64,000 bases of DNA, taken from Candidatus Nanoarchaeia archaeon (GTDB lineage: Archaea > Nanobdellota > Nanobdellia > Pacearchaeales > GW2011-AR1). The position numbers were made by a program, and so were the translations under genes. The stretch lies in the NCBI GenBank assembly GCA_035548435.1, contig DASZSY010000003.1, positions 5,311-69,310 on the forward strand, written 5' to 3'. Below are positions 46,985 to 59,209 of the stretch, in pieces (the first letter of the stretch is position 1; each line of letters starts with the position of its first letter). The notes under the pieces are model-generated. The model saw only the letters and a program-made list of their open reading frames with translations. It was not told the DNA's origin and searched no databases.

Positions 46985-47461
46985 GTGAGAGAGGTGCATA
47001 AAGGAATATTTCCTGAAGTTCCACTATCAGATGGAAACTTTCATTCTAGAGCTTTAACCGTACTTGAAACAAATCCTTCCTTGTTTGGCGAAAGAAAAGA
47101 TACTTGCATAACAATAAATCGCGAGCCTGAAAGAAAAGACAGAAGTTTAACTTACCAAGAAAGTGTAGACTTAATTTTTATTTATGATAGACTTAAGAGA
47201 AGATCACAAAGATATGGAGTTGCAATTGAATTAAAAACAATTGAAAGAGGAGAATTAAGTTTAAGAGATAGAGCTAAAGCAGAAAGTCAATTATTTAATG
47301 GAATACGATATATATCCTCGAGATATGATAGTGTTGCACATACACCATATGGAATACTTGTAACAGTATCTCGTGAAGGAGTTTATGAGTGGGAAAGGAT
47401 ATATGCAGATGAGTTAAGATGGCGTTGGGAATTTAATCAAGAAATTAAAAGAAAACGTTAA
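46985..47461 (+). CDS. Hypothetical protein
   Basis: 158 aa, Arg/Glu-rich, no motif. Confidence 0.3.
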   Translation: MREVHKGIFPEVPLSDGNFHSRALTVLETNPSLFGERKDTCITINREPERKDRSLTYQESVDLIFIYDRLKRRSQRYGVAIELKTIERGELSLRDRAKAESQLFNGIRYISSRYDSVAHTPYGILVTVSREGVYEWERIYADELRWRWEFNQEIKRKR

Positions 47462-50400
47462 AACCACTTATTGAGCCCTTCCTGAGTTTCCTTATCTTTT
47501 CCAAATATACTTTCTATATATGATTGAGTTAATTCTAAACTTTCAAGAAGGTAAGGACTCACATTATAATTTCTTGCGAGTGCGAGTGCAGGTTCCATAT
47601 ACTTCAAAATACTTCCTTCAGAAATAGTAAATATTATTTTACTTCCACATGAAGTGCATTTTCCAACCAATGGGGGCCTTCTATATTTAGAGTTACAAGT
47701 AACGCATCTAAATCCTTGTTGAGAGAATTTTCTTAGGTTTCCTCTTGTATCTCTTATGAAGTGTCTTTCAATTATTAATCTTGCAGCATCGCTTGCATCA
47801 ACTGCTCTTATCTTTTTACATAAATGCATCATTCCATCTACCTTCTCCTGCATTGTTGGTAATGTTTTATAACTTGAACATAAAGCTCCTTTGTTTAAAT
47901 CAGAAGTATCGTGTGTGAAATTTAACTCTGTAAACTCTTTGTTTCCTCCAAGTCTATTCTTTACCTGTTCCATCTTAACTTCAGAAGGATGTTTTTTTTC
48001 TTTTGCCGCTGCATAAAGTTCATATGGAACTTCTTTTGTAACATCTAAGTCGAAAATCATATCATCAACTTCGTTTGCCCTTATTCTCATATTAAGAACA
48101 AGTGGCGCGTCTTGAGTTCCTCCCCTATGAGATGGAATAAACTTCCTTGAAAAATTCAAAAGTAAGTCCATAAGCATCATAACTGCTGCCTCGTCTCCGT
48201 CACAATCTCTTCTCATTGCCGCGTGAATATATGGACTTGCCAAAAGTGCTTGTATCTTTGAAAATCCAACAAGTCTTCCAACTGCCACTGCAGAAGTGTG
48301 TGGAGACATACAACCAAAAAGAGAACCTACAAGATCTTCTCTCTTTTTTGCATTGAAGTAGGTGTTTGTATTATATATTTTAACAAGTTCTTCATCTATG
48401 AATCTTCCAACGCTTAAGAAAACATCATCTGCTCTTTCATCAGGAGTTTCTGGACAGGCAGGCAATATAATATCATGTGGAAAAAGCTCAAGTATTTGAT
48501 TATCTGTTTTCAATTCTTCTCCATATATATCTTTTTCATAACCTAAAGAAACAAGTTTTGCAACTGAGGTTCCAACTTCTGCAGGTCTAAAATGAGTTAT
48601 AGGCATTTCAGTCATGTCATATCTTATAGTTCCGTCTTTGTTTACGTGAAGTCCGTGCTTTGCTCTTAGTAATCCCTTTGCAAGATGTTCACATACGTGT
48701 TCACTGTTAGAAGTTCCTTTCACTCCCTTAACAACACTTGGAACCTCATCATTTCTCATTCCAATTAATTTTCTAGCAGAATCAAAATAAGATTTTATTT
48801 CAATAGACCTTTCTGCTTCTCTTCCATAGCTATTTTCTTGCTTTTCAACTTCTTCAAGTTTACAATAATTCCCGCAAGTTTCACATTTTCTATATATGCT
48901 TTCTCTTTTACATGTATTACAGAAATAATTTGGAAAGTCTGCTCTTACTATTCCATTTTCAACTGCAGTTTGCACACTTCTCATTCTTCCACCTTCTTCT
49001 CCAACAGGGAAAAGAACGTGTGGACTTCCAATTAACTTTCTAAGCTTTGCTTTTTCAGGACGACCCATTCTTGCTCCAATAAAAGTTCCACTCTTGTCTG
49101 CAATCTTTACAGCACATAATTTAGAAATAATTTCTAGTGGCAACTTATCAGATTCTTTCTTTATTTCAAGTGAAATCCTATCAACTCCCTGATCTAAAGG
49201 CTCATGCATTGATAACCCTAAATTAAATAATAGTGCTTCAGAATATGGTTGTTTTATCAAAACATCTTCCAAAGCCACGTCATGTTCACAACCAAGCAGT
49301 TCTAAAGCTCTTTTACCCTGAGCAAATCTTTCTCTATGTAACTTAGAATATGGTAAAGCAAAAACTCCATTTCTTATTATTCCGTGTGCAATCCAGTCAA
49401 TCAAACCAAGAAGCTGCTCTGTAGAAATCTCTTTCCAAAAGAAAGAATATTTTGGATGGAGGGGAATGTCATACTTTTGAGAAATCTCAACTGCCTCAGA
49501 AAAAGAAATATTTTTATTTGCCTCTCCCCCTGCTTTTTTCAAATCCACTGCCCAATATTCTTCAACATATCCTGCTTTTTCTAAACCGTGGTTTCTATTT
49601 ATAAAATCACCAAATGGAACTAAAATATCTCCAAGGTAAACTATTTCTTTAATTCTTGGCTGAAGTTTAACAGCTTCATCATAATCATTTACAAATTTTA
49701 AACTTCCATCATCAAGAATAACTATAGGTCCATCAATAGTATCACATGAAGCCACAGTACATCCTTTGGTAGGTTTCTCAATTTTAAGTTGTGTTCCAAC
49801 TGCAATAAAACCATTTGTTATAGCCATTGTTGCTGGATGAACTGCCAGCGTAGAATATCCTGTTGTTCTACATCTTCCATATCTTAGTCTAAATCCTCCC
49901 GACTGTGAAGGGTGTGAAAATATAGGTCTCCCTCCTACAATGTCTTGAATATATGTAGCTCCCCCTCTTGAAGCATCAGACTTCTTTCCTTCTTTTATTT
50001 TCTTTTGAAGTTTTACAAATTCCTCAAGCCAAGTCCAATCAGAAAGTTTAAACCCTTGTTGTTTTAGTTTCAAAACTCTTTTCAAACATTTAGGAGCTTT
50101 CTGTGCCATTCCTTCAGCTCCAACAAGACAAAAACCAGAACGTAAGATGTTTGTTTCAATTCTTGGCAAATCCTTATAGTTGAAAACTTCTCTTTCTTCA
50201 CTAGGGTCTCCAGAAAGTTGTATAGGAAGATTTCTAAACATAAAGTCAAGTTCTTGTTCTGAAGGAAGATATTGCAAGTTTGTTATTCTTTCATGATATT
50301 CATAACATTCATGTATTCCTCTTTTAACTTCATCTTCAGTAGGATCATATTTAGCATATCCAAATAGCTCTCTTAAATAATCAACAACCACTAGAGAGAA

Positions 50401-50877
50401 TGCTGCTTCACTTCCTCCTGCAGATCTTATAGGTCCAGAATAATAAGGTGCAAGATAATCTTTTCCATCTGCGGTTTTCTTAACCTTAAGCTGAATAAAT
50501 CCTTCAATAGGTGAAGAAACATATCCTAATGTTAAATAACCTAAAGCAACTCTTATACCTGCCTCTATCGCTTCTAAATGACTTTTGAATTTACAGAATT
50601 TTTCTTTTGCAACTTCTTCTGCAATACTTAAAGCAACTGCAGGGTCTAAAGGACCATATTGTTTTTCAAGTTCATGCACTCTTTCAACTATTCTTTTGTC
50701 ATTTATTTGAGGATAAAGGACACTAACAAGTCCCAAGACTCTTTCAGCTAGAGAGGTTGCAACCGGCACTTCAACACTATCAGAAGGGTCTATTCCTTTC
50801 TTTCTAGCTATATTTGCATGAGCATATGCTTCTCCCACAGACTTTTCAAGTTGTTTGAAATATTGTTCAACCTGCAT
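47458..50877 (-). CDS. polD2: DNA polymerase II (PolD) large subunit DP2
   Basis: 1139 aa; N-terminal region, catalytic core and C-terminal Cys clusters (CNTC...CETC, CVTC...CTSC); no intein-sized insertion. Confidence 0.9.
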   Translation of the reverse strand: MQVEQYFKQLEKSVGEAYAHANIARKKGIDPSDSVEVPVATSLAERVLGLVSVLYPQINDKRIVERVHELEKQYGPLDPAVALSIAEEVAKEKFCKFKSHLEAIEAGIRVALGYLTLGYVSSPIEGFIQLKVKKTADGKDYLAPYYSGPIRSAGGSEAAFSLVVVDYLRELFGYAKYDPTEDEVKRGIHECYEYHERITNLQYLPSEQELDFMFRNLPIQLSGDPSEEREVFNYKDLPRIETNILRSGFCLVGAEGMAQKAPKCLKRVLKLKQQGFKLSDWTWLEEFVKLQKKIKEGKKSDASRGGATYIQDIVGGRPIFSHPSQSGGFRLRYGRCRTTGYSTLAVHPATMAITNGFIAVGTQLKIEKPTKGCTVASCDTIDGPIVILDDGSLKFVNDYDEAVKLQPRIKEIVYLGDILVPFGDFINRNHGLEKAGYVEEYWAVDLKKAGGEANKNISFSEAVEISQKYDIPLHPKYSFFWKEISTEQLLGLIDWIAHGIIRNGVFALPYSKLHRERFAQGKRALELLGCEHDVALEDVLIKQPYSEALLFNLGLSMHEPLDQGVDRISLEIKKESDKLPLEIISKLCAVKIADKSGTFIGARMGRPEKAKLRKLIGSPHVLFPVGEEGGRMRSVQTAVENGIVRADFPNYFCNTCKRESIYRKCETCGNYCKLEEVEKQENSYGREAERSIEIKSYFDSARKLIGMRNDEVPSVVKGVKGTSNSEHVCEHLAKGLLRAKHGLHVNKDGTIRYDMTEMPITHFRPAEVGTSVAKLVSLGYEKDIYGEELKTDNQILELFPHDIILPACPETPDERADDVFLSVGRFIDEELVKIYNTNTYFNAKKREDLVGSLFGCMSPHTSAVAVGRLVGFSKIQALLASPYIHAAMRRDCDGDEAAVMMLMDLLLNFSRKFIPSHRGGTQDAPLVLNMRIRANEVDDMIFDLDVTKEVPYELYAAAKEKKHPSEVKMEQVKNRLGGNKEFTELNFTHDTSDLNKGALCSSYKTLPTMQEKVDGMMHLCKKIRAVDASDAARLIIERHFIRDTRGNLRKFSQQGFRCVTCNSKYRRPPLVGKCTSCGSKIIFTISEGSILKYMEPALALARNYNVSPYLLESLELTQSYIESIFGKDKETQEGLNKWF

Positions 50878-52429
50878 TCTTTATTTCCTCCTCATCTCCA
50901 AAATCAAGAACCTTGAGTTCTCTTGTTTTCAAATTAAGAATGGGTACCTTTGCAGGATCAGGAATATTTCCAACTTTTTCTTCGAAAGGAGTCTGTGCCT
51001 GCCAGCAACTTCCAGTTATAATTAAAACACCATTATAACTTTCTATATCTAGTCTGTGAACTTCTCCTGTACATAGTACATCTGGAACTTCTTGTATAAC
51101 TAAAGAATCACTTTCCTTATTTGGAATATAGGTTACTTCTCCGTGTGTTGGAGCTAAATGTCTTCTTTTAAGCATGTGTCTTACTGCTTTAGCTGGAGTT
51201 CTGTGTGCTTTAATTTCTCGCAGTTCTTGAATTTCATTTATGAAAGCGTGAATACTTGCTCCATGATACATCAAGACCTTAAACTCTTTATCTCCTTCTA
51301 GTATCTTAACAAGACAAGGATTAGTTACTAGAACAAGATTATCAAATCCGTATAGTTCTGGAGCATAATTTTTATCAATTATTGGCTGTGGTTCTGCAAC
51401 TCTTGAAGCGTCGTGCTGCCCTGGACACATGAATATTGTTATGTCTTTAGGAATCCTTCTTATGTAAGATGCAAGCAAAGCATATTGTTCTTTCATACTT
51501 CCAAGTTTCAAAAGTTTTTCTTGTCCAGGGAAAATTCCAACCCCATCAACATTATCTCCTGTAAAGAAAACATATTTTACTTTCTTTGCCAGTTCATCTC
51601 CACTATTTATCCAATTCAAGAAATTATTAAAACTACTTTCAAGATGTCTATCGCTACCTGCGTGAACATCAGATAAGAAGGCTACACAAACCTCTTCATT
51701 AAATTTAACTTTTTCATTAATGAATGAGTCTGGGAAGAAAATGTCGTGAATAAATGTAAGGTCTTTATTTCCAGATGCTCTTACTCCCACAACATCGTCT
51801 AGTTGAAGTTCATTTGCTATAGCAAATAACTCTGCATTGTCTACCTTAACAAGACCATTTATAGTTCCTGTTAAATCTTCAAATTTAATTATAAGATTTT
51901 TATTTTTAGTCATTCTTTTTTCAGTCACCATTCCAATAAAACTAAAGAGCTGTCTATCTGATGAAACCTTGTTTAATGCAATCAAGTTTTTCAGTGCTGG
52001 TCTATTCATAAGAATTCTTTGAAGCATCTGGTATCTAGATCTAAAGTTTCCAACAAAGTCTGCAACTTCAAGCTTTTTATCTGCCTTTGTATTAGCATAA
52101 AATAATCTATAGTTTTGACTGTTTTTCTTTACTATTTCAGGCGTCTGTTGTATTTTTGTTTCTCTTTTAACTTCAATATTTATTCCAAGTTTAACAAAAA
52201 CACTTTCAACAAGACTCTTATCTGTTCCCGGTAGTTTGGAAATAGACTGATGAGATATATTCTTAGTTAGGTTGGATTTAGTTATTATTTTTTGTCCTGC
52301 TGATTGTTCGAGCTGTGCAATTAAATTTTTAGCCTCATTTGTGTCTGCAATATTTGAAACCAAGTCAAATATCTCTTTTTCTAAAAGAATTCCTTTTTCC
52401 CTTAAATAAGAAAGCACCTCGGAGTTCAT
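50867..52429 (-). CDS. polD1: DNA polymerase II (PolD) small subunit DP1
   Basis: Calcineurin-like phosphoesterase motifs FLSDVHAGSD, GDNVD, GQHD; overlaps DP2 by 11 nt. Confidence 0.85.
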   Translation of the reverse strand: MNSEVLSYLREKGILLEKEIFDLVSNIADTNEAKNLIAQLEQSAGQKIITKSNLTKNISHQSISKLPGTDKSLVESVFVKLGINIEVKRETKIQQTPEIVKKNSQNYRLFYANTKADKKLEVADFVGNFRSRYQMLQRILMNRPALKNLIALNKVSSDRQLFSFIGMVTEKRMTKNKNLIIKFEDLTGTINGLVKVDNAELFAIANELQLDDVVGVRASGNKDLTFIHDIFFPDSFINEKVKFNEEVCVAFLSDVHAGSDRHLESSFNNFLNWINSGDELAKKVKYVFFTGDNVDGVGIFPGQEKLLKLGSMKEQYALLASYIRRIPKDITIFMCPGQHDASRVAEPQPIIDKNYAPELYGFDNLVLVTNPCLVKILEGDKEFKVLMYHGASIHAFINEIQELREIKAHRTPAKAVRHMLKRRHLAPTHGEVTYIPNKESDSLVIQEVPDVLCTGEVHRLDIESYNGVLIITGSCWQAQTPFEEKVGNIPDPAKVPILNLKTRELKVLDFGDEEEIKNAG

Positions 52430-53631
52430 AGGTCTATTGCCTTATCAAGTATCTCCTTTGCTTTTGTTTTTATTTGTGGAGAAAGCATGAGTTTTATTTC
52501 TCTTGTTCTTCCCTGCCTTCCCTTACTTATGACTCTCGCATTTATTATTCCAAGCATGTCAAACTCTGCAATTATATCTGAAACTCTTCTCTGAGTTAAA
52601 ACCTCATTTCTAGTTTTTTGACAAAATTCCTGATAAACATTATAAACATCTCCCGTAAATATTTCCTCAACTTCTTTTTTATCATCTAAATTCATTATGG
52701 CCTTTAAAACAAGTTGAAATTGCTTAGGTTCGCTTTCAATTATATCAAGCATTTTATCTCTCTCAATCTTTTGATTAGCGGAATCTATGTGTGTTTCTTC
52801 TATTTTCTTTTTTCCATCTCTTTCAGCTAGTTCTCCTGCAACTCTTAATAAATCTAAAGCTCTTCTAGCATCTCCATGTTCTCTGGCAGCAAACGCAGCA
52901 CATTTAGCAATAACTCCCTCATCTATAGCTCCTTCCTTAAACGCAATCTCTGCTCTTTCTTTTAATATGTCTTGCAGCTGCAGAGCATTATATGGTGAAA
53001 ATACAAGTTCTTCTTCTCCAAGTGAACTTCTTACTCTAGGATCTAGGTTATCCATAAATGTCAAACTGTTACTTATTCCTATAATACTTATTTGAGCATT
53101 TTTAAGTTCAGTATTTAGCCTTGTAAGTGTGTAAATAAAGTTGTCATTTATTTTTTTAACTGCCTGATCTATTTCATCTAAGACAATAAGTATAATCTGT
53201 TTCTTTTTATCAATCATTTCAATAAATCTAGAATATACCTGGTCTGTAGGAAGTCCCGTAGCTGGAACAGTTCCACCCATTTCGTTAATTAATTCAGCTA
53301 AAATTCTATATTCAGTATCAGAAACTTTCTTTAATTTACAATTAATATATGTAAAAACAAGTTCATCTTTGTTCATTTGCTTCATTTTATCAATTAATCT
53401 ATTTCCTACATGCTGAACAGAAAGTGTTTTTCCAGTTCCAGTCTTTCCATAAATGAAAAGATTACTAACTCTTTCTCCTCTTAAAGCAGGAGCAAGAATT
53501 GAAGCAACAGATTCTATTTGATCATCTCTATGAGGTATTGTTTCCGGAGTATAGTTAGACTGAAGAGCAGATTTATTCTTAAATAATCCAGAAGAAGCAA
53601 TTGAATCAAATAATTTATCAATTTTATCCAT
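52426..53631 (-). CDS. cdc6: Orc1/Cdc6 replication initiator
   Basis: AAA+ Walker A GKTGTGKT, Walker B LDEID, C-terminal winged helix; 4-nt overlap with DP1. Confidence 0.9.
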   Translation of the reverse strand: MDKIDKLFDSIASSGLFKNKSALQSNYTPETIPHRDDQIESVASILAPALRGERVSNLFIYGKTGTGKTLSVQHVGNRLIDKMKQMNKDELVFTYINCKLKKVSDTEYRILAELINEMGGTVPATGLPTDQVYSRFIEMIDKKKQIILIVLDEIDQAVKKINDNFIYTLTRLNTELKNAQISIIGISNSLTFMDNLDPRVRSSLGEEELVFSPYNALQLQDILKERAEIAFKEGAIDEGVIAKCAAFAAREHGDARRALDLLRVAGELAERDGKKKIEETHIDSANQKIERDKMLDIIESEPKQFQLVLKAIMNLDDKKEVEEIFTGDVYNVYQEFCQKTRNEVLTQRRVSDIIAEFDMLGIINARVISKGRQGRTREIKLMLSPQIKTKAKEILDKAIDL

Positions 53632-54014
53632 AAATATTTTATATAAAATCTTATTATAAATGTATGTGTGTTTGAGGCATCATTTCCACTGAAAGGTTCT
53701 CTTTTCTCGAATAAAATTAATTATTAAAATAAAAAAATAATGAAAACACAGACACCTCTGTTTCTATTGGAAAATGAAAACTAAAACCTTCCAAGTTAGT
53801 ATTAACACGAACTTATATTACTATATATAATATATATAATATATAATATAAATATTTATAATATAAAATTAAAGAAAAAGAAATTTCAATTTTTCTTTTT
53901 AAATGTTTTTGTTATTTTCCATGTGAAATAATAGGGTGTGGGTGTTTGTAAAAAATATTTATCTATATAATGTAGTAAAGAAACATTTATATATCGCTTT
54001 CATTAAACTACGCT
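53632..54014. other. Predicted chromosomal replication origin (oriC): AT-rich unwinding element flanked by ORB-like dyads
   Basis: 383-bp non-coding region immediately upstream of orc1/cdc6. TTCCACTGAAA (53684-53694) is preceded by GT tract TGTATGTGTGTTTGAGG. TTCCATGTGAAA (53917-53928) is followed by GGGTGTGGGTGTTTG. They flank an almost pure (TA)n tract at 53812-53870. Confidence 0.55.
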
Positions 54015-54275
54015 ATGGTACTTGATAAAAAGCCATTAAAAGAGATTGTTGGACGCCTTGTTGTAACAAAAGAAGGTAAAAGACTTGGATTTGTAAAAGA
54101 TATTAACTTTGAAACAAGAACTGGAGAACTTATTCAGATCGTTCTAAGAGAACCTACTGCTTATGCAAAGTCATTAAATCTAGAGTCTTCTCAGGAGAAA
54201 GATGTTCTAGTTCCATACAATACAATTATTGCTATCGGTGACTTCGTTGTTATTTCTGAAGAAGATTTGATTTAA
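54015..54275 (+). CDS. PRC-barrel domain protein
   Basis: GRLVVTKEGKRLGFVKDINFETRTGELIQIVL pattern. Confidence 0.5.
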   Translation: MVLDKKPLKEIVGRLVVTKEGKRLGFVKDINFETRTGELIQIVLREPTAYAKSLNLESSQEKDVLVPYNTIIAIGDFVVISEEDLI

Positions 54276-54311: not shown

Positions 54312-54749
54312 ATGAACCTTATAGGATTTGCTTTTACAAAACTACACGCAGAGAAAGTTGCAGCTATGTCTAAAAAAGTAGCAAAGGTAAATGATATTCA
54401 TATTACAAATGTTGAGAAAGAAGAAGTTCCTATACAAATGAAAACAGATGCCTATAGAATTTCATTTAGATTTGTTTTAACTTACAATGATAAGGATGCT
54501 AAAAAAGAAGCAAAGTTAGGAGAAGTAATTATTGAAGGATATATTATAACCTCTCTTACTGAAAACGAAGGAAAAGAATTCTTTAAGAGCTGGAAAAAGA
54601 AAGAGGTTCCTGAGAGCTTTAGACCTGCAATATTTAGTTTAATAATGAAGAAATGTTCACCAAAGGCAATTGATCTTGAAGACACTATATCTTTACCTTT
54701 CCATGTTCCAATTGTTCCACAGTTAAGATTCAACAATTCTGAAAAATAA
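54312..54749 (+). CDS. Hypothetical protein
   Basis: 145 aa; no motif. Confidence 0.3.
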   Translation: MNLIGFAFTKLHAEKVAAMSKKVAKVNDIHITNVEKEEVPIQMKTDAYRISFRFVLTYNDKDAKKEAKLGEVIIEGYIITSLTENEGKEFFKSWKKKEVPESFRPAIFSLIMKKCSPKAIDLEDTISLPFHVPIVPQLRFNNSEK

Positions 54750-54757
54750 AAGCGTTT

Positions 54758-55471
54758 TTAGTTAATTTCTTTTAATTTACCAAATTCAAAGTTTTCTAAT
54801 TCATTTCCAACAGCAATTACTTTAAACTCTTCAAGTTCTAAAGGCCAAGGTAATTTAGTTAAGTAATCTCTAGGATCCGTGCCTTCATTACTACTTATAA
54901 AACTAGGACAAATAATAAAATTCTTATCTTTATATTTCCCTTCAAGAAAACACTTATACTTCTCAGATTTTACTCCATCTCTTAGAACTATAGCGGGATG
55001 TAAATGCCCTATAACTATTGTTTTTATTTTTTTATCTTTAATTAAGTCAAAATCCCTATCTCCGTGTAAAAACGCAATTTCTTCAGACAAATAATAATCT
55101 TTAATTTCTAAATTATCTTTTTTAGGTAAATAATTTATTAAAACATCATGGTTTCCCTTTGTAATTATAAGTTTTTCAGTTCTTTTTTCTAATTTTTCTA
55201 TTATTTTTTCAAATTGCTGCCTTTCTTCTTTTAATATAGAACCAAAAGTGTGTTTTATATCTCCTAAAAGAACAATTTCATTAAATTTATCTTTAAATTC
55301 AAATAACTCATCAAAAGACTTCTCAACTTCTTCAAAAATATACCTATTAATAAAAATTCCTGCCTGATTAAGTGCAGATTCGAACCCTAAATGAAGATCT
55401 CCTACAACTAGTATTTCCTTTTCTTTTTGTTTAATGATAAGAAACTTTCCTTTATACGTTATTTTGTTCAT
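54758..55471 (-). CDS. Metallophosphoesterase (Lhr-associated MPE-like nuclease)
   Basis: VVGDLHLGFE, GDIKH, GNHD, GHLH motifs; overlaps the 3' end of the Lhr gene by 20 nt. Confidence 0.7.
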   Translation of the reverse strand: MNKITYKGKFLIIKQKEKEILVVGDLHLGFESALNQAGIFINRYIFEEVEKSFDELFEFKDKFNEIVLLGDIKHTFGSILKEERQQFEKIIEKLEKRTEKLIITKGNHDVLINYLPKKDNLEIKDYYLSEEIAFLHGDRDFDLIKDKKIKTIVIGHLHPAIVLRDGVKSEKYKCFLEGKYKDKNFIICPSFISSNEGTDPRDYLTKLPWPLELEEFKVIAVGNELENFEFGKLKEIN

Positions 55472-58052
55472 TTTTTTCTCCTATTGCCTTAAGATGCAAT
55501 TGATGCATTCTTTTTAGGAAAGCAACCCTATCTTCTATCTTAATTAAATCACTCTTTCCATGCATCCAAACCCCAAGTCCGAAAGGAGAAACTATGGGTG
55601 TTTTAATCTGCTTTATCTTTATTCTTCCATCTTCTATTGCAGCAAGAACTTTTGTTGCATTCTTTAAATCCATAAGATCTTCTAGTACCTCTCTTCTTGC
55701 TTCTTGTAATATTGGGAAGGAATCACCTATTTTTCTTACAGCCGCAAAAAGAAACTCGGAATGAACTTGCTGCTTTCCTACACTCTTACTCCTACCCTTA
55801 TAACTTCGAAGTATCATTAAACTTCTTCCAGCACAGTGTCTAAATCTTCTTTTCAAAACATCTGTTTTTTCTAAAGCTTCTTTTATTATGAGTTTCAAGT
55901 CTTTACTTTTGACAAAATCAAGTATTTTCTTATCTTCCAAATGTTCTGCAGAGATATAAAATCCATTATCGTTTATTCCAAGCTCAACGTCTCTATGTTT
56001 AAGTCTTGCAGCTGCATATGCATATGCTCTAGAAAGAACGTCATTAACCCTTCTTCCATATAAGCTATGAAAAACCATAACTTCCTTCAAATCTTTGAAT
56101 TTCTCAACAACCAGTGTTTTTTCATCAGGCACAGCAGCAAAATCTCTCTGGTTTTTGAAATAGTTATATATTTCTTCAGCCACATACTTCTTGCAATATG
56201 TGTATTTTTCAATAAATTCAACACAATCTTTCTTATTGTCTAGTCTTTCCTTAACAAGTGCCCTAAATTTACCAATTGCACATGCAACATCAAAATGTAA
56301 GGGCAACATTTCACTTGCCCATGAAGGAATTGTAGGGTTTCTAGATACATCTGCCTTAACAAAAGCTTTCATCCCTCTTGTATATAGAAATTGATACTTT
56401 TTTCCTCCAAGAACAAATACATCTCCTCTTTTCATTCTTTCAACAAAACTCTCATCTACCTGTCCTACAATTGCCCCAGTTCTTTCTGCATCATTTACAA
56501 CTACTGAAATAAAGCTTTCATCAGGTATAGATCCTACATTTGTAGAGTAAATAACTTTAGCAAGCATTCCTCTTTTCCCAATCTGTTGTTTTTCTAAATC
56601 ATACCATATTTTAGCATAAACGTGTCTATGTTCAAGGGCATATTCTCCTGCTAGATAACTAAGAACGCCCATAAAATCTTCATCACTTAAGGTAGAGTAA
56701 CAGTAAGCCCTTCTTATACAATCTTTCATTTCCTGAACTCCCCAAACCTTTGTTATTGCCATACCATATATCTGCTGAGCAAGAACATCTAGCGCATTTC
56801 TAGGTATCTGAATTCTATCTATTTGTTTTTCAACCATTGCTTTCATTAAAATAGCACATTCAACAAGATCATCTCTATCCAAAACAATAAACTTTCCCTT
56901 TGGATGTTCATGAAGCTGGTGTCCTGCTCTTCCAATTCTTTGCAGGGCCCTAGCTACACCCTTAGGAGACTTAATTAAAATAACAATATCTATGCTTCCT
57001 ATATCTATTCCAAGTTCAAGACTTGTGGAAGAAACAACCACCTTCAGTTCACCCTTTCTAAGTCTTTCCTCAATCATAAACCTCTGCTCTTTACTCATAG
57101 AGCTATGGTGTGCCCCGATAAATCCAGTGTACTTTCCAGGATATCTTGTTTCCAGGTGATGTATTATTCTTTCTGTAGCGTTTCTAGTATTTGTGAAAAT
57201 AAGGGTTGTTCTATTTGCGCTTATAATCTCATCAAGCATCTTGTAAAGTTTTGTTTGACTGTCTGTACTTTCAGATTCAAGAATGTCATCTCCAGGGAAA
57301 TCAAGGTCTATTTCAATACTTTTTACAAGTTTCACATCAGCAATCAAGCAATCTCTCTGCTCTCCAACAAGGAATTTAGCAACTTCCTCTAAAGGGAATA
57401 TTGTTGCACTAAGTCCAATACGTACAGGGTCAATTAAACTCATGTGTGCTATTCTTTCCATTGTTAAATTAAGGTGAACTCCTCTTTTGTTTGTCATTGC
57501 GTGTATCTCATCTATGATTATGAATTCGAGTGCAGTCATTTTTTGAGAAAATTTGCCTGTAGTGATAACTATAGCTAAACTTTCAGGTGTTGTAACAAAT
57601 ATATGGGGGCATTTCTTAGCCATTTTACTTCTTTCATATGCAGTTGTGTCTCCAGTTCGTAGACCGACTCTAATTTCTTGCATCTGCAGTCCCTTTTTCT
57701 TTGCAAGTTCTTGCATTTCTTCCAAGGGGCGTTGCAAATTAACATAAATATCATTACTTAGTGCCTTTAGCGGGCTACAATATACTGCATATATCTTATC
57801 CTCAAGCTCTTTTTTCAGTGCAAGCCCCACAATATAATTTAAAATTCCTAAAAATGCAGATAAAGTTTTGGTTCCTCCAGTAGGTGCACTTATAAGTATA
57901 TTTTTTCTTTCGTATATATTCTTTACAGCATGTCTTTGTGTTAGTGAGAAGTCCTCAAATCTTGAAAAAAACCATTCTTTAACAAGAGGATGTAATGTTT
58001 CCTCTACTTCTTTCTTGCTAAATTCTTTTGTTTGAGTTATTTGTCCCATCAT
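55452..58052 (-). CDS. lhr: Lhr-like SF2 helicase
   Basis: Walker A APTGGTKT, DEIH box IIDEIHAM, motif VI QRIGRAGH; 866 aa including the Lhr-core C-terminal region. Confidence 0.8.
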   Translation of the reverse strand: MMGQITQTKEFSKKEVEETLHPLVKEWFFSRFEDFSLTQRHAVKNIYERKNILISAPTGGTKTLSAFLGILNYIVGLALKKELEDKIYAVYCSPLKALSNDIYVNLQRPLEEMQELAKKKGLQMQEIRVGLRTGDTTAYERSKMAKKCPHIFVTTPESLAIVITTGKFSQKMTALEFIIIDEIHAMTNKRGVHLNLTMERIAHMSLIDPVRIGLSATIFPLEEVAKFLVGEQRDCLIADVKLVKSIEIDLDFPGDDILESESTDSQTKLYKMLDEIISANRTTLIFTNTRNATERIIHHLETRYPGKYTGFIGAHHSSMSKEQRFMIEERLRKGELKVVVSSTSLELGIDIGSIDIVILIKSPKGVARALQRIGRAGHQLHEHPKGKFIVLDRDDLVECAILMKAMVEKQIDRIQIPRNALDVLAQQIYGMAITKVWGVQEMKDCIRRAYCYSTLSDEDFMGVLSYLAGEYALEHRHVYAKIWYDLEKQQIGKRGMLAKVIYSTNVGSIPDESFISVVVNDAERTGAIVGQVDESFVERMKRGDVFVLGGKKYQFLYTRGMKAFVKADVSRNPTIPSWASEMLPLHFDVACAIGKFRALVKERLDNKKDCVEFIEKYTYCKKYVAEEIYNYFKNQRDFAAVPDEKTLVVEKFKDLKEVMVFHSLYGRRVNDVLSRAYAYAAARLKHRDVELGINDNGFYISAEHLEDKKILDFVKSKDLKLIIKEALEKTDVLKRRFRHCAGRSLMILRSYKGRSKSVGKQQVHSEFLFAAVRKIGDSFPILQEARREVLEDLMDLKNATKVLAAIEDGRIKIKQIKTPIVSPFGLGVWMHGKSDLIKIEDRVAFLKRMHQLHLKAIGEKNEQNNV

Positions 58053-58564: not shown

Positions 58565-59209
58565 ATGGATCCAATCAAAGAGGCATTCACAAAAGTTAGA
58601 CAAGATATTTCAGATTTAAAGACTTCCATCTCATTTTTAATGCAAGAAATAGAAGATATTAAACGAACTCTTAATGAACAAAAAAACACAACAATTAAGC
58701 CTATTCTAACCTCCCAAATAAGTGAAATTCCAACAAACCAACAAACAGATTCTGATAAAGTAGCTTTATACGGTCTAAAAAGCCCAAATACTCAATTTTC
58801 CAGTGGAAATAGGGGGGTTCCAACAAACAGACAGACAAACCAACAAACAGACCAACAGATTCCTAGCACGTTGGCATCCACTGTACAGGCCGTTGATTCA
58901 CTGAAATTAAGCTTAAAAAACACTTTTTTGAGCCTTACAAAGCAAGAAAGAGAAGTATTTTTGATGCTTTATGATCTCGAAGAACGAGGTTTTACCGTCG
59001 ATTATCCTTTGCTGGCGCAAAAACTTAATCTAACAGAAAGTTCAATAAGAGATTATGTTCTTAAGATGATTCGTAAAGGTGTTCCAATACAAAAACTTAA
59101 GGAAAACAACAAAAAAGTCTTCTTATCCGTTGCTCCAGAGCTTAAAAAAATGGCTAATTTAGCTTCATTTCAATCTTTATACTCTATAAAACAGGAGTTC
59201 ATCGGTTAA
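58565..59209 (+). CDS. Coiled-coil + low-complexity (PTNQQTD repeats) + C-terminal wHTH protein
   Basis: C-terminus TKQEREVFLMLYDLEERGFTVDYPLLAQKLNLTESSIRDYVLKMIRKGV aligns with the C-terminus of 59429..60064. Confidence 0.4.
   Translation: MDPIKEAFTKVRQDISDLKTSISFLMQEIEDIKRTLNEQKNTTIKPILTSQISEIPTNQQTDSDKVALYGLKSPNTQFSSGNRGVPTNRQTNQQTDQQIPSTLASTVQAVDSLKLSLKNTFLSLTKQEREVFLMLYDLEERGFTVDYPLLAQKLNLTESSIRDYVLKMIRKGVPIQKLKENNKKVFLSVAPELKKMANLASFQSLYSIKQEFIG

Follow-up and report, generated by a model that had tools for sequence, protein, structure and literature searches.

The closest described systems are found in Sulfolobus, Pyrococcus and the haloarchaea. In Sulfolobus, oriC1 has an ORB3-DUE-ORB2 layout of ~130 bp that is needed for origin activity; each ORB is bound by one Orc1-1 monomer with fixed polarity, and the pair steers MCM to the DNA between them (PMC12141716). 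In Pyrococcus, Cdc6 binds ORBs that lie within dp1, a coding gene near the origin (PMC1904270), and for haloarchaea outlying ORB clusters with proposed regulatory roles were described (PMC4010727). Among DPANN archaea, the origin of the Diapherotrite Candidatus Forterrea was placed beside cdc6 by cumulative skew and Z-curve, and no ORBs were described (PMC5905446). In the literature searched, ORBs were not mentioned together with DPANN, and Pacearchaeota appeared together with replication origins only in a G-quadruplex survey. The locus considered here lies in a 64-kb stretch of DNA (the window). From its sequence and those of its relatives, a 383-bp gap upstream of orc1 is predicted to be an oriC1-type chromosomal replication origin module of a Pacearchaeota-like DPANN archaeon, with a probability that we put at roughly three in four.

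The gap (53632-54014) is non-coding: it contains no ORF of at least 30 aa, and an Rfam search returned no match in it. On the minus strand it is followed by the orc1/cdc6 initiator gene of the Orc1-1 type (52426..53631, 401 aa; Pfam Cdc6_lid, Cdc6_C and AAA), by the gene of the PolD small subunit DP1 (50867..52429, 520 aa; DNA_pol_E_B and Metallophos), which overlaps orc1 by 4 nt, and by that of the large subunit DP2 (47458..50877, 1139 aa; PolC_DP2 N-terminal, central and catalytic domains), which overlaps DP1 by 11 nt. The far boundary is a divergent PRC-barrel gene (54015..54275, plus strand, 86 aa; Pfam PRC); PRC-barrel proteins, exemplified by CdpB, have a role in archaeal cell division (bioRxiv 10.1101/2023.03.28.534520). 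The sequence-only reading had described three replication genes pointing away from the gap, with overlaps of 4 and 11 nt, and the Pfam assignments and ORFs agree; the oriC-cdc6-polD layout that it recognized also agrees in gene order with Thermococcales (PMC1904270). The host, in contrast, is not euryarchaeal as had been supposed. Its Orc1 has a 100% identical counterpart in a 'Candidatus Nanoarchaeia' MAG and hundreds of relatives, at 64-88% identity, in MAGs labelled Pacearchaeota, Nanoarchaeota or Woesearchaeota, so that Orc1 identity and the relatives' labels place the host in DPANN (Pacearchaeota/Nanoarchaeia). Among proteins of known structure, Orc1 is nearest to S. solfataricus Orc1-1 (2QBY_A, 5e-105) and A. 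pernix ORC1 (2V1U_A, 3e-95); the structures of both were determined on ORB DNA, and both match far better than Orc1-3 and ORC2. The winged-helix recognition helix, TQRRVSDII, is identical to those of these Orc1-1 relatives, and the wing is similar.

Beyond the PRC-barrel gene, a gene for a 145-aa protein (54312-54749, plus strand) has no Pfam match and is present in 64 related loci. It is followed by a metallophosphoesterase and Lhr-type helicase pair (54758-58052, minus strand), which lies between the 145-aa gene and the genes for a 103-aa protein and for the ORB-bearing protein discussed below. In only 32 of 80 related loci was the metallophosphoesterase detected upstream of orc1, and in only 23 the Lhr-type helicase. 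A Mre11-Rad50-like pair lies on the same contig just beyond the window, at ~69.7-72.9 kb.

Three ORBs were found in the gap, two full and one degenerate. A full ORB consists of a TTCCA-NNN-GAAA dyad followed, 4 nt on, by a G-string GG(G/T)GT. As a loose dyad motif occurs here only at chance level (1 match, 1.28 expected), a 25-nt matrix based on relatives was used instead; it was built from relatives only and is thus partly circular for them, not for this window. The matrix scan of the window gave three strong matches, of 27.2, 25.6 and 24.9 bits, and none of 100 simulated 64-kb sequences scored above 20.2. The strongest is the middle ORB TTTCCAATAGAAACAGAGGTGTCTG (53749-53773, minus strand, 27.2 bits), with its G-string toward orc1. 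The distal ORB TTTCCATGTGAAATAATAGGGTGTG (53916-53940, plus strand, 25.6 bits; 53916..53948 with its GT tail) has its G-string toward the PRC-barrel gene. The two are inverted, and their dyads face an interval of 142 bp. The third strong match lies outside the gap and is treated below. The proximal element cTTTCAGTGGAAATGATGCCTC (53671-53695, minus strand, core 53683-53694) is a degenerate mini-ORB of 4.1 bits with a weak G-string; its dyad reads TTTCAGTGGAAAT and adjoins the orc1 TATA box on the upstream side. The G-string columns of the matrix contain 62-83% G against a background of 11%, although they were outside the search seed. Across the related loci, 186 matches above 18 bits lie at most 1.3 kb upstream of orc1, in orc1-upstream intergenic DNA totalling ~40 kb, and 49 were found in the other ~800 kb, of which ~42 represent one conserved outlying element. 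A scoring ORB is located at -30 to -130 from the orc1 start in most relatives. In comparison with a same-species contig, substitutions in the ORBs fall mostly at degenerate positions, the exception being an upstream T-to-C change in the middle ORB.

Enrichment of ORBs over background had been set beforehand as one test of an origin here. It is clear from the matrix scores, as the middle and distal ORBs score above all simulations, and from the distribution of hits in relatives. Two dyads had been proposed from the sequence alone, and both are present, TTCCACTGAAA at 53684-53694 and TTCCATGTGAAA at 53917-53928. The first, likened to the mini-ORB consensus, turned out to be the opposite-strand reading of the degenerate mini-ORB. 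Both were said to be accompanied by GT- or G-rich strings; the second string is indeed the conserved G-string of the distal ORB, and the first is no part of an ORB. The proposal of only two elements had overlooked the best one, the middle ORB. The GT string at 53661-53674 is on the wrong side or strand and forms a spacer between the mini-ORB and the orc1 TATA box; within the alignment described below, its GT-richness is seen only in this species. A two-copy GT-rich direct repeat was likewise rejected as an ORB part from this alignment, and a 9-mer direct repeat AATGAAAAC around the middle ORB was dropped as chance since it is absent from the same-species contig.

Between the inverted ORBs lies an AT tract, a candidate duplex-unwinding element (53813..53873). 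Among all 60-mers of the window, the segment 53813-53872 has the lowest duplex stability, -49.1 kcal/mol where the mean is -73.3 (sd 4.5), and the region also ranks lowest when stability is calculated over 40, 100 or 150 nt. It contains an AT-only run of 52 nt (53822-53873), the longest in the window. No comparable minimum was found in a further 26 kb of this contig and a sister contig. The sequence-only reading had seen a near-pure (TA)n tract at 53812-53870; the AT tract is real, and the repeat is less regular than that, with period 2 by TRF at 73% matches and C at 53812 and 53821. The second longest AT-only run of the window, 32 nt, lies between the middle and proximal ORBs (53710..53741). 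Many independent assemblies end in or beside the gap; three separate ones of a single relative (85% identity) each break off 188 nt upstream of orc1. Short-read assembly appears to be interrupted by the AT tract.

The outer parts of the gap carry two TATA-like boxes, which are putative promoter elements. The orc1 box TTTATAAT (53653..53660, minus strand) lies 22-29 nt before the ATG and is aligned in nine of nine sequences of the alignment, with one variant, TTTATATT, in one relative. The box of the PRC-barrel gene, TTTATATA (53987..53994, plus strand), is kept in the alignment as the opposite-strand block TATATAAATnTTTC. Both boxes are only ~20-29 nt from the start codons of the divergent genes, and this short distance suggests leaderless or near-leaderless transcripts. 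A conserved TTCGAG (53706..53711, minus strand) occurs ~11-17 nt upstream of the proximal ORB in the window and in six other sequences. A sub-clade motif, AGTTCGTGTTAAT (53801..53813, minus strand; consensus AGTTC(G/T)T(G/A)TTAAT), borders the AT tract at a distance of ~41 nt from the middle ORB. Exact or one-mismatch copies are found on the same strand, 40-43 nt from the middle ORB, in five relatives (L002, L004, L008, L023 and L031); the motif is also on the same strand in L007, L011 (two copies) and L022 (~60 nt away), and it is present in L005.

The conservation of the module was followed in 80 related loci, which were fetched after an alignment-based search of a genome collection, and at closer range in an alignment of nine sequences (A2). 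Of the 85% relative, 188 nt of the gap were used; a relative of 88% identity was left out of the DNA comparison. DP1 follows orc1 immediately in 78 of the 80 loci and DP2 is downstream in 71. Wherever the sequence upstream of orc1 is long enough (66 loci), it contains the PRC-barrel gene, divergent in 65 of them, so the order PRC, gap, orc1-DP1-DP2 is kept across the order of archaea. In 56 of the 80 loci a gap of 310-1190 bp separates orc1 from the same 86-aa gene as its divergent upstream neighbour, and in each of these 56 gaps the 60-mer of lowest stability has a minus-oriented distal ORB on one side and one or more plus-oriented ORBs on the other. Conservation in A2 is block-wise, covering the ORBs, the AT tract and both TATA boxes. 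The middle ORB is kept, as is the position of the proximal mini-ORB, and the AT tract is preserved in its very sequence in these near relatives. The distance between middle and proximal ORBs is mostly ~76-80 nt in the near clade and 96-98 nt in every case in a distant subgroup (L043-L078), which has a conserved cttttttagtagt(c/t)ata after the middle ORB.

The reading of the gap as an ORB-DUE origin module is argued for by the significant ORBs, the architecture shared by 56/56 relatives and the Orc1-1-type initiator; the prediction of an oriC, already made from the sequence alone, is upheld on these grounds, with the reservation that no skew switch accompanies it. The features looked for in an oriC1-type origin are at least two ORBs above chance, present here at 27.2 and 25.6 bits, where simulation reached 20.2 at most; ORBs of opposite polarity around an AT-rich unwinding element, present here and in 56/56 relatives; an adjacent Orc1-1/Cdc6-1 initiator gene, also present; and a module that, with its gene context, is conserved among related genomes, which is observed as well. 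If the Sulfolobus, Aeropyrum and Pyrococcus systems are a guide, each ORB would be bound with fixed polarity by monomers of the neighbouring Orc1-1-type protein, the winged helix touching the dyad and the AAA+ domain the G-string. It is proposed that the inverted middle and distal ORBs recruit MCM to the AT tract, which would then melt. The proximal mini-ORB beside the TATA box may serve Orc1 in autoregulation of the orc1-DP1-DP2 promoter, and orc1, DP1 and DP2 would be transcribed away from the origin as a single unit.

A switch of strand asymmetry at the site is a further feature of oriC1. It is supportive and not strictly defining, since many archaeal origins are without clear skew and a clean pattern was found in only 18 of 224 archaeal genomes (PMC7111523). 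The sequence-only reading had looked to a GC-skew minimum at the gap; neither a minimum nor a switch is there, in raw or orientation-corrected values, over the ~90 kb reached by extending the window rightward with the rest of the contig (CAZZNA010000099.1, 78.5 kb, GCA_964655315.1) and then with a same-species 210-kb contig. To the left and right of the gap alike the raw GC skew is negative, with no minimum of the cumulative curve in between, and its sign changes only near 65-66 kb, where gene orientation flips; the minus-strand gene bias runs to ~65.8 kb. The intergenic region at 65.8 kb contains a tRNA-like sequence, recognized by eye, and neither an ORB nor a DUE. As the raw skew tracks gene orientation, the strand effect was separated from the gene-orientation effect by use of third codon positions. 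Left of the gap the GC3 skew, in plus-strand sense, is -0.105 for plus-strand genes and -0.26 for minus-strand genes, and the corrected values in 10-kb blocks are -0.22, -0.20, -0.21, -0.05 and -0.23, that is, ~-0.2 in four of five. On the right they are -0.16 (54-63 kb), -0.02 and -0.11 (63-73 kb, estimated once on this contig and once on its sister), -0.13 (73-83 kb) and +0.03 (80-90 kb). The corrected skew thus has no sign switch at the gap and fades slowly rightward over ~35 kb. The minus strand is G-rich at third codon positions regardless of gene direction, with a strand component of ~-0.2 over 53 kb (window, L085, L087 and L088). Pooled over the 80 related loci, the skew showed no flip within 6 kb, a result judged unreliable as the same few gene families are counted repeatedly. 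The missing switch is real evidence against the gap as a polarity switch point, albeit noisy over 10 kb. A further point against an origin at this position is the upstream Lhr helicase gene, which would be transcribed head-on to forks leaving the gap.

These data bear most directly on another explanation, in which the gap is a conserved Orc1-binding region controlling transcription of orc1-polD and of the PRC-barrel gene, or a dormant or backup origin, and most replication starts elsewhere. On passing the gap the corrected GC3 skew does not change sign, nor does it for ~25-30 kb further on, the minus-strand gene bias continues to ~65.8 kb, and the outer ORBs adjoin the two promoters; all of this speaks for such a region. 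There is also a precedent in Thermococcus kodakarensis, in which an ORB-bearing origin is reportedly not used (PMC5663688). However, pure regulation leaves unexplained why an extreme, sequence-conserved AT tract lies between inverted ORBs in 56/56 cases. The ~90 kb surveyed, moreover, hold no further ORB cluster, no other DUE-like minimum and no second cdc6 gene that could mark an alternative start, and the skew itself is noisy over 10-kb blocks (one left block at -0.05) and fades rightward. We therefore regard a solely regulatory or dormant role as improbable, the best placed of the alternatives to an active origin.

The third strong match of the window is an outlying, fourth full ORB, TTTCCAGTGGAAATAGGGGGGTTCC (58797-58821, plus strand, 24.9 bits), in the same orientation as the distal ORB and inside a coding gene (58565-59209, plus strand). 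In the encoded protein, a long N-terminal helix is followed by a linker predicted to be disordered (residues 42-98, pLDDT <50) and then by a MarR/ArsR-like winged helix; the protein belongs to a family annotated as 'hypothetical', with ~860 members in Nanoarchaeota. A fold search returned only generic MarR/ArsR winged-helix matches and no link to Cdt1/WhiP or MCM; an Rfam match at the outlying ORB was below threshold and was set aside as a chance hit. The ORB codes for residues 78-86 (FSSGNRGVP), the sole well-conserved part of the linker. The same ORB occurs in ~35 relatives, without exception in this frame and directed away from orc1, at 1.8-5.9 kb on its upstream side; the distance is ~5 kb where the metallophosphoesterase-Lhr pair is present, as here, and otherwise ~2 kb. 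Its codons are unusual. Ser is encoded by TCC in 35/36 sites, against 3.6% of Ser codons in orc1 genes, Gly by GGG in 35/36 (24% expected) and Asp by GAC in 27/27 (19% expected). The codon across GAAA is GGA (31) or AGA, which encodes Arg (5), and never GGT, GGC or GGG; amino acids vary freely at spacer positions. The fixation of rare codons, together with Gly-to-Arg changes that keep GAAA, indicates selection at the DNA level. On this codon evidence it is tentatively suggested, at somewhat less than even odds, that throughout Pacearchaeales the linker codons do double duty as a selected Orc1-binding site for distal control of the origin, by initiator titration, by looping or by coupling the expression of the gene to Orc1 occupancy. 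Downstream of the ORB, an (ACAG)n-like run (58822-58870) is read as T-D-R-Q repeats, as seen also in relatives such as L035, L053 and L054, and some relatives have pure in-frame (ACAG)n runs of ~8-9 units. Such runs could slip and shift the frame before the winged-helix domain. Some homologues carry a second half-copy (GNxGV).

The presence of this site in a winged-helix gene raises the question of whether TTCCA-NNN-GAAA/GGGGT elements could be operators of another protein, for instance the neighbouring coiled-coil and winged-helix protein itself, the gap being then a shared divergent promoter. The gene with the outlying copy does encode a MarR/ArsR-like domain and is a conserved neighbour of the locus. 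Nevertheless, that protein is tied to the sites by proximity alone, the element has the make-up of the canonical Orc1 site known from Pyrococcus, Sulfolobus and haloarchaea, a mini-ORB dyad with a G-string, and the adjacent initiator keeps its ORB-contacting parts, which makes an operator of this kind very unlikely. As for a chance AT-rich intergenic region with fortuitous short dyads, which the chance-level frequency of the loose dyad pattern alone might suggest, it is practically refuted already by matrix scores above all 100 simulations and by position, orientation and AT tract kept in 56/56 relatives.

The layout of the gap, initiator boxes around a readily melting AT segment, is the standard one of archaeal chromosome origins, and it is common to a whole order of tiny uncultivated archaea for which, in the literature searched, no such element was described before. 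The ORB consensus for the order, tTTCCA-NNN-GAAA-T-n-A-A-GG(T/G)GT, and the fixed three-box architecture can be used to anchor genome starts, to help close assemblies interrupted at the AT tract and to guide work on Orc1 binding. The mismatch between a textbook origin module and the missing skew switch is testable from existing read data. The outlying ORB, in turn, would extend the precedent of Pyrococcus dp1, an ORB within a coding gene, to a case with codon-level evidence of selection on DNA.

Compared with Candidatus Forterrea, the other DPANN case, clear ORBs and a DUE are found here, and there is no skew switch at the site. Haloarchaeal oriC1 (Haloferax, Haloarcula) is alike in combining mini-ORB and G-string and in the GT stretches that follow some ORBs (PMC1868953); it differs in having an extended halophile-specific second G-string, which is absent here, and here one cdc6 gene was found in ~90 kb. 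Pyrococcus and the Thermococcales share the order oriC-cdc6-dp1-dp2, with the origin directly upstream of cdc6, as well as inverted ORBs, mini-ORBs, AT-rich regions and the same dyad core with N3 spacing. The core of P. furiosus ORB1, TTCCAGTGGAAAT, is identical to the 13-mer core of the outlying ORB (PMC1904270). However, in the complete P. furiosus ORB1, GAAATGAAACTCTGGGGGG, the G-string starts 9 nt after GAAA, and here it starts after 4 nt. The Thermococcales have an ORB/mini-ORB cluster in dp1, whereas no matrix match above 8 bits was found here in 50867-52429; the outlying ORB is instead a single site, in a different gene (58565-59209) and on the other side of the origin. The hosts differ too, an AT-rich DPANN archaeon here and hyperthermophilic euryarchaea there. 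Sulfolobus oriC1 is similar in its inverted ORBs around an AT-rich DUE, ~130-190 bp across (PMC12141716). The ucm of Sulfolobus, a non-ORB motif in or beside the DUE, has a counterpart by position in AGTTCGTGTTAAT, which is limited to the sub-clade. The A. pernix ORB is 22 bp long, with a short dyad-to-G-string spacing, and the spacing here is similar. It is also the initiators of Sulfolobus and A. pernix oriC1 that are closest to the Orc1 encoded beside the gap.
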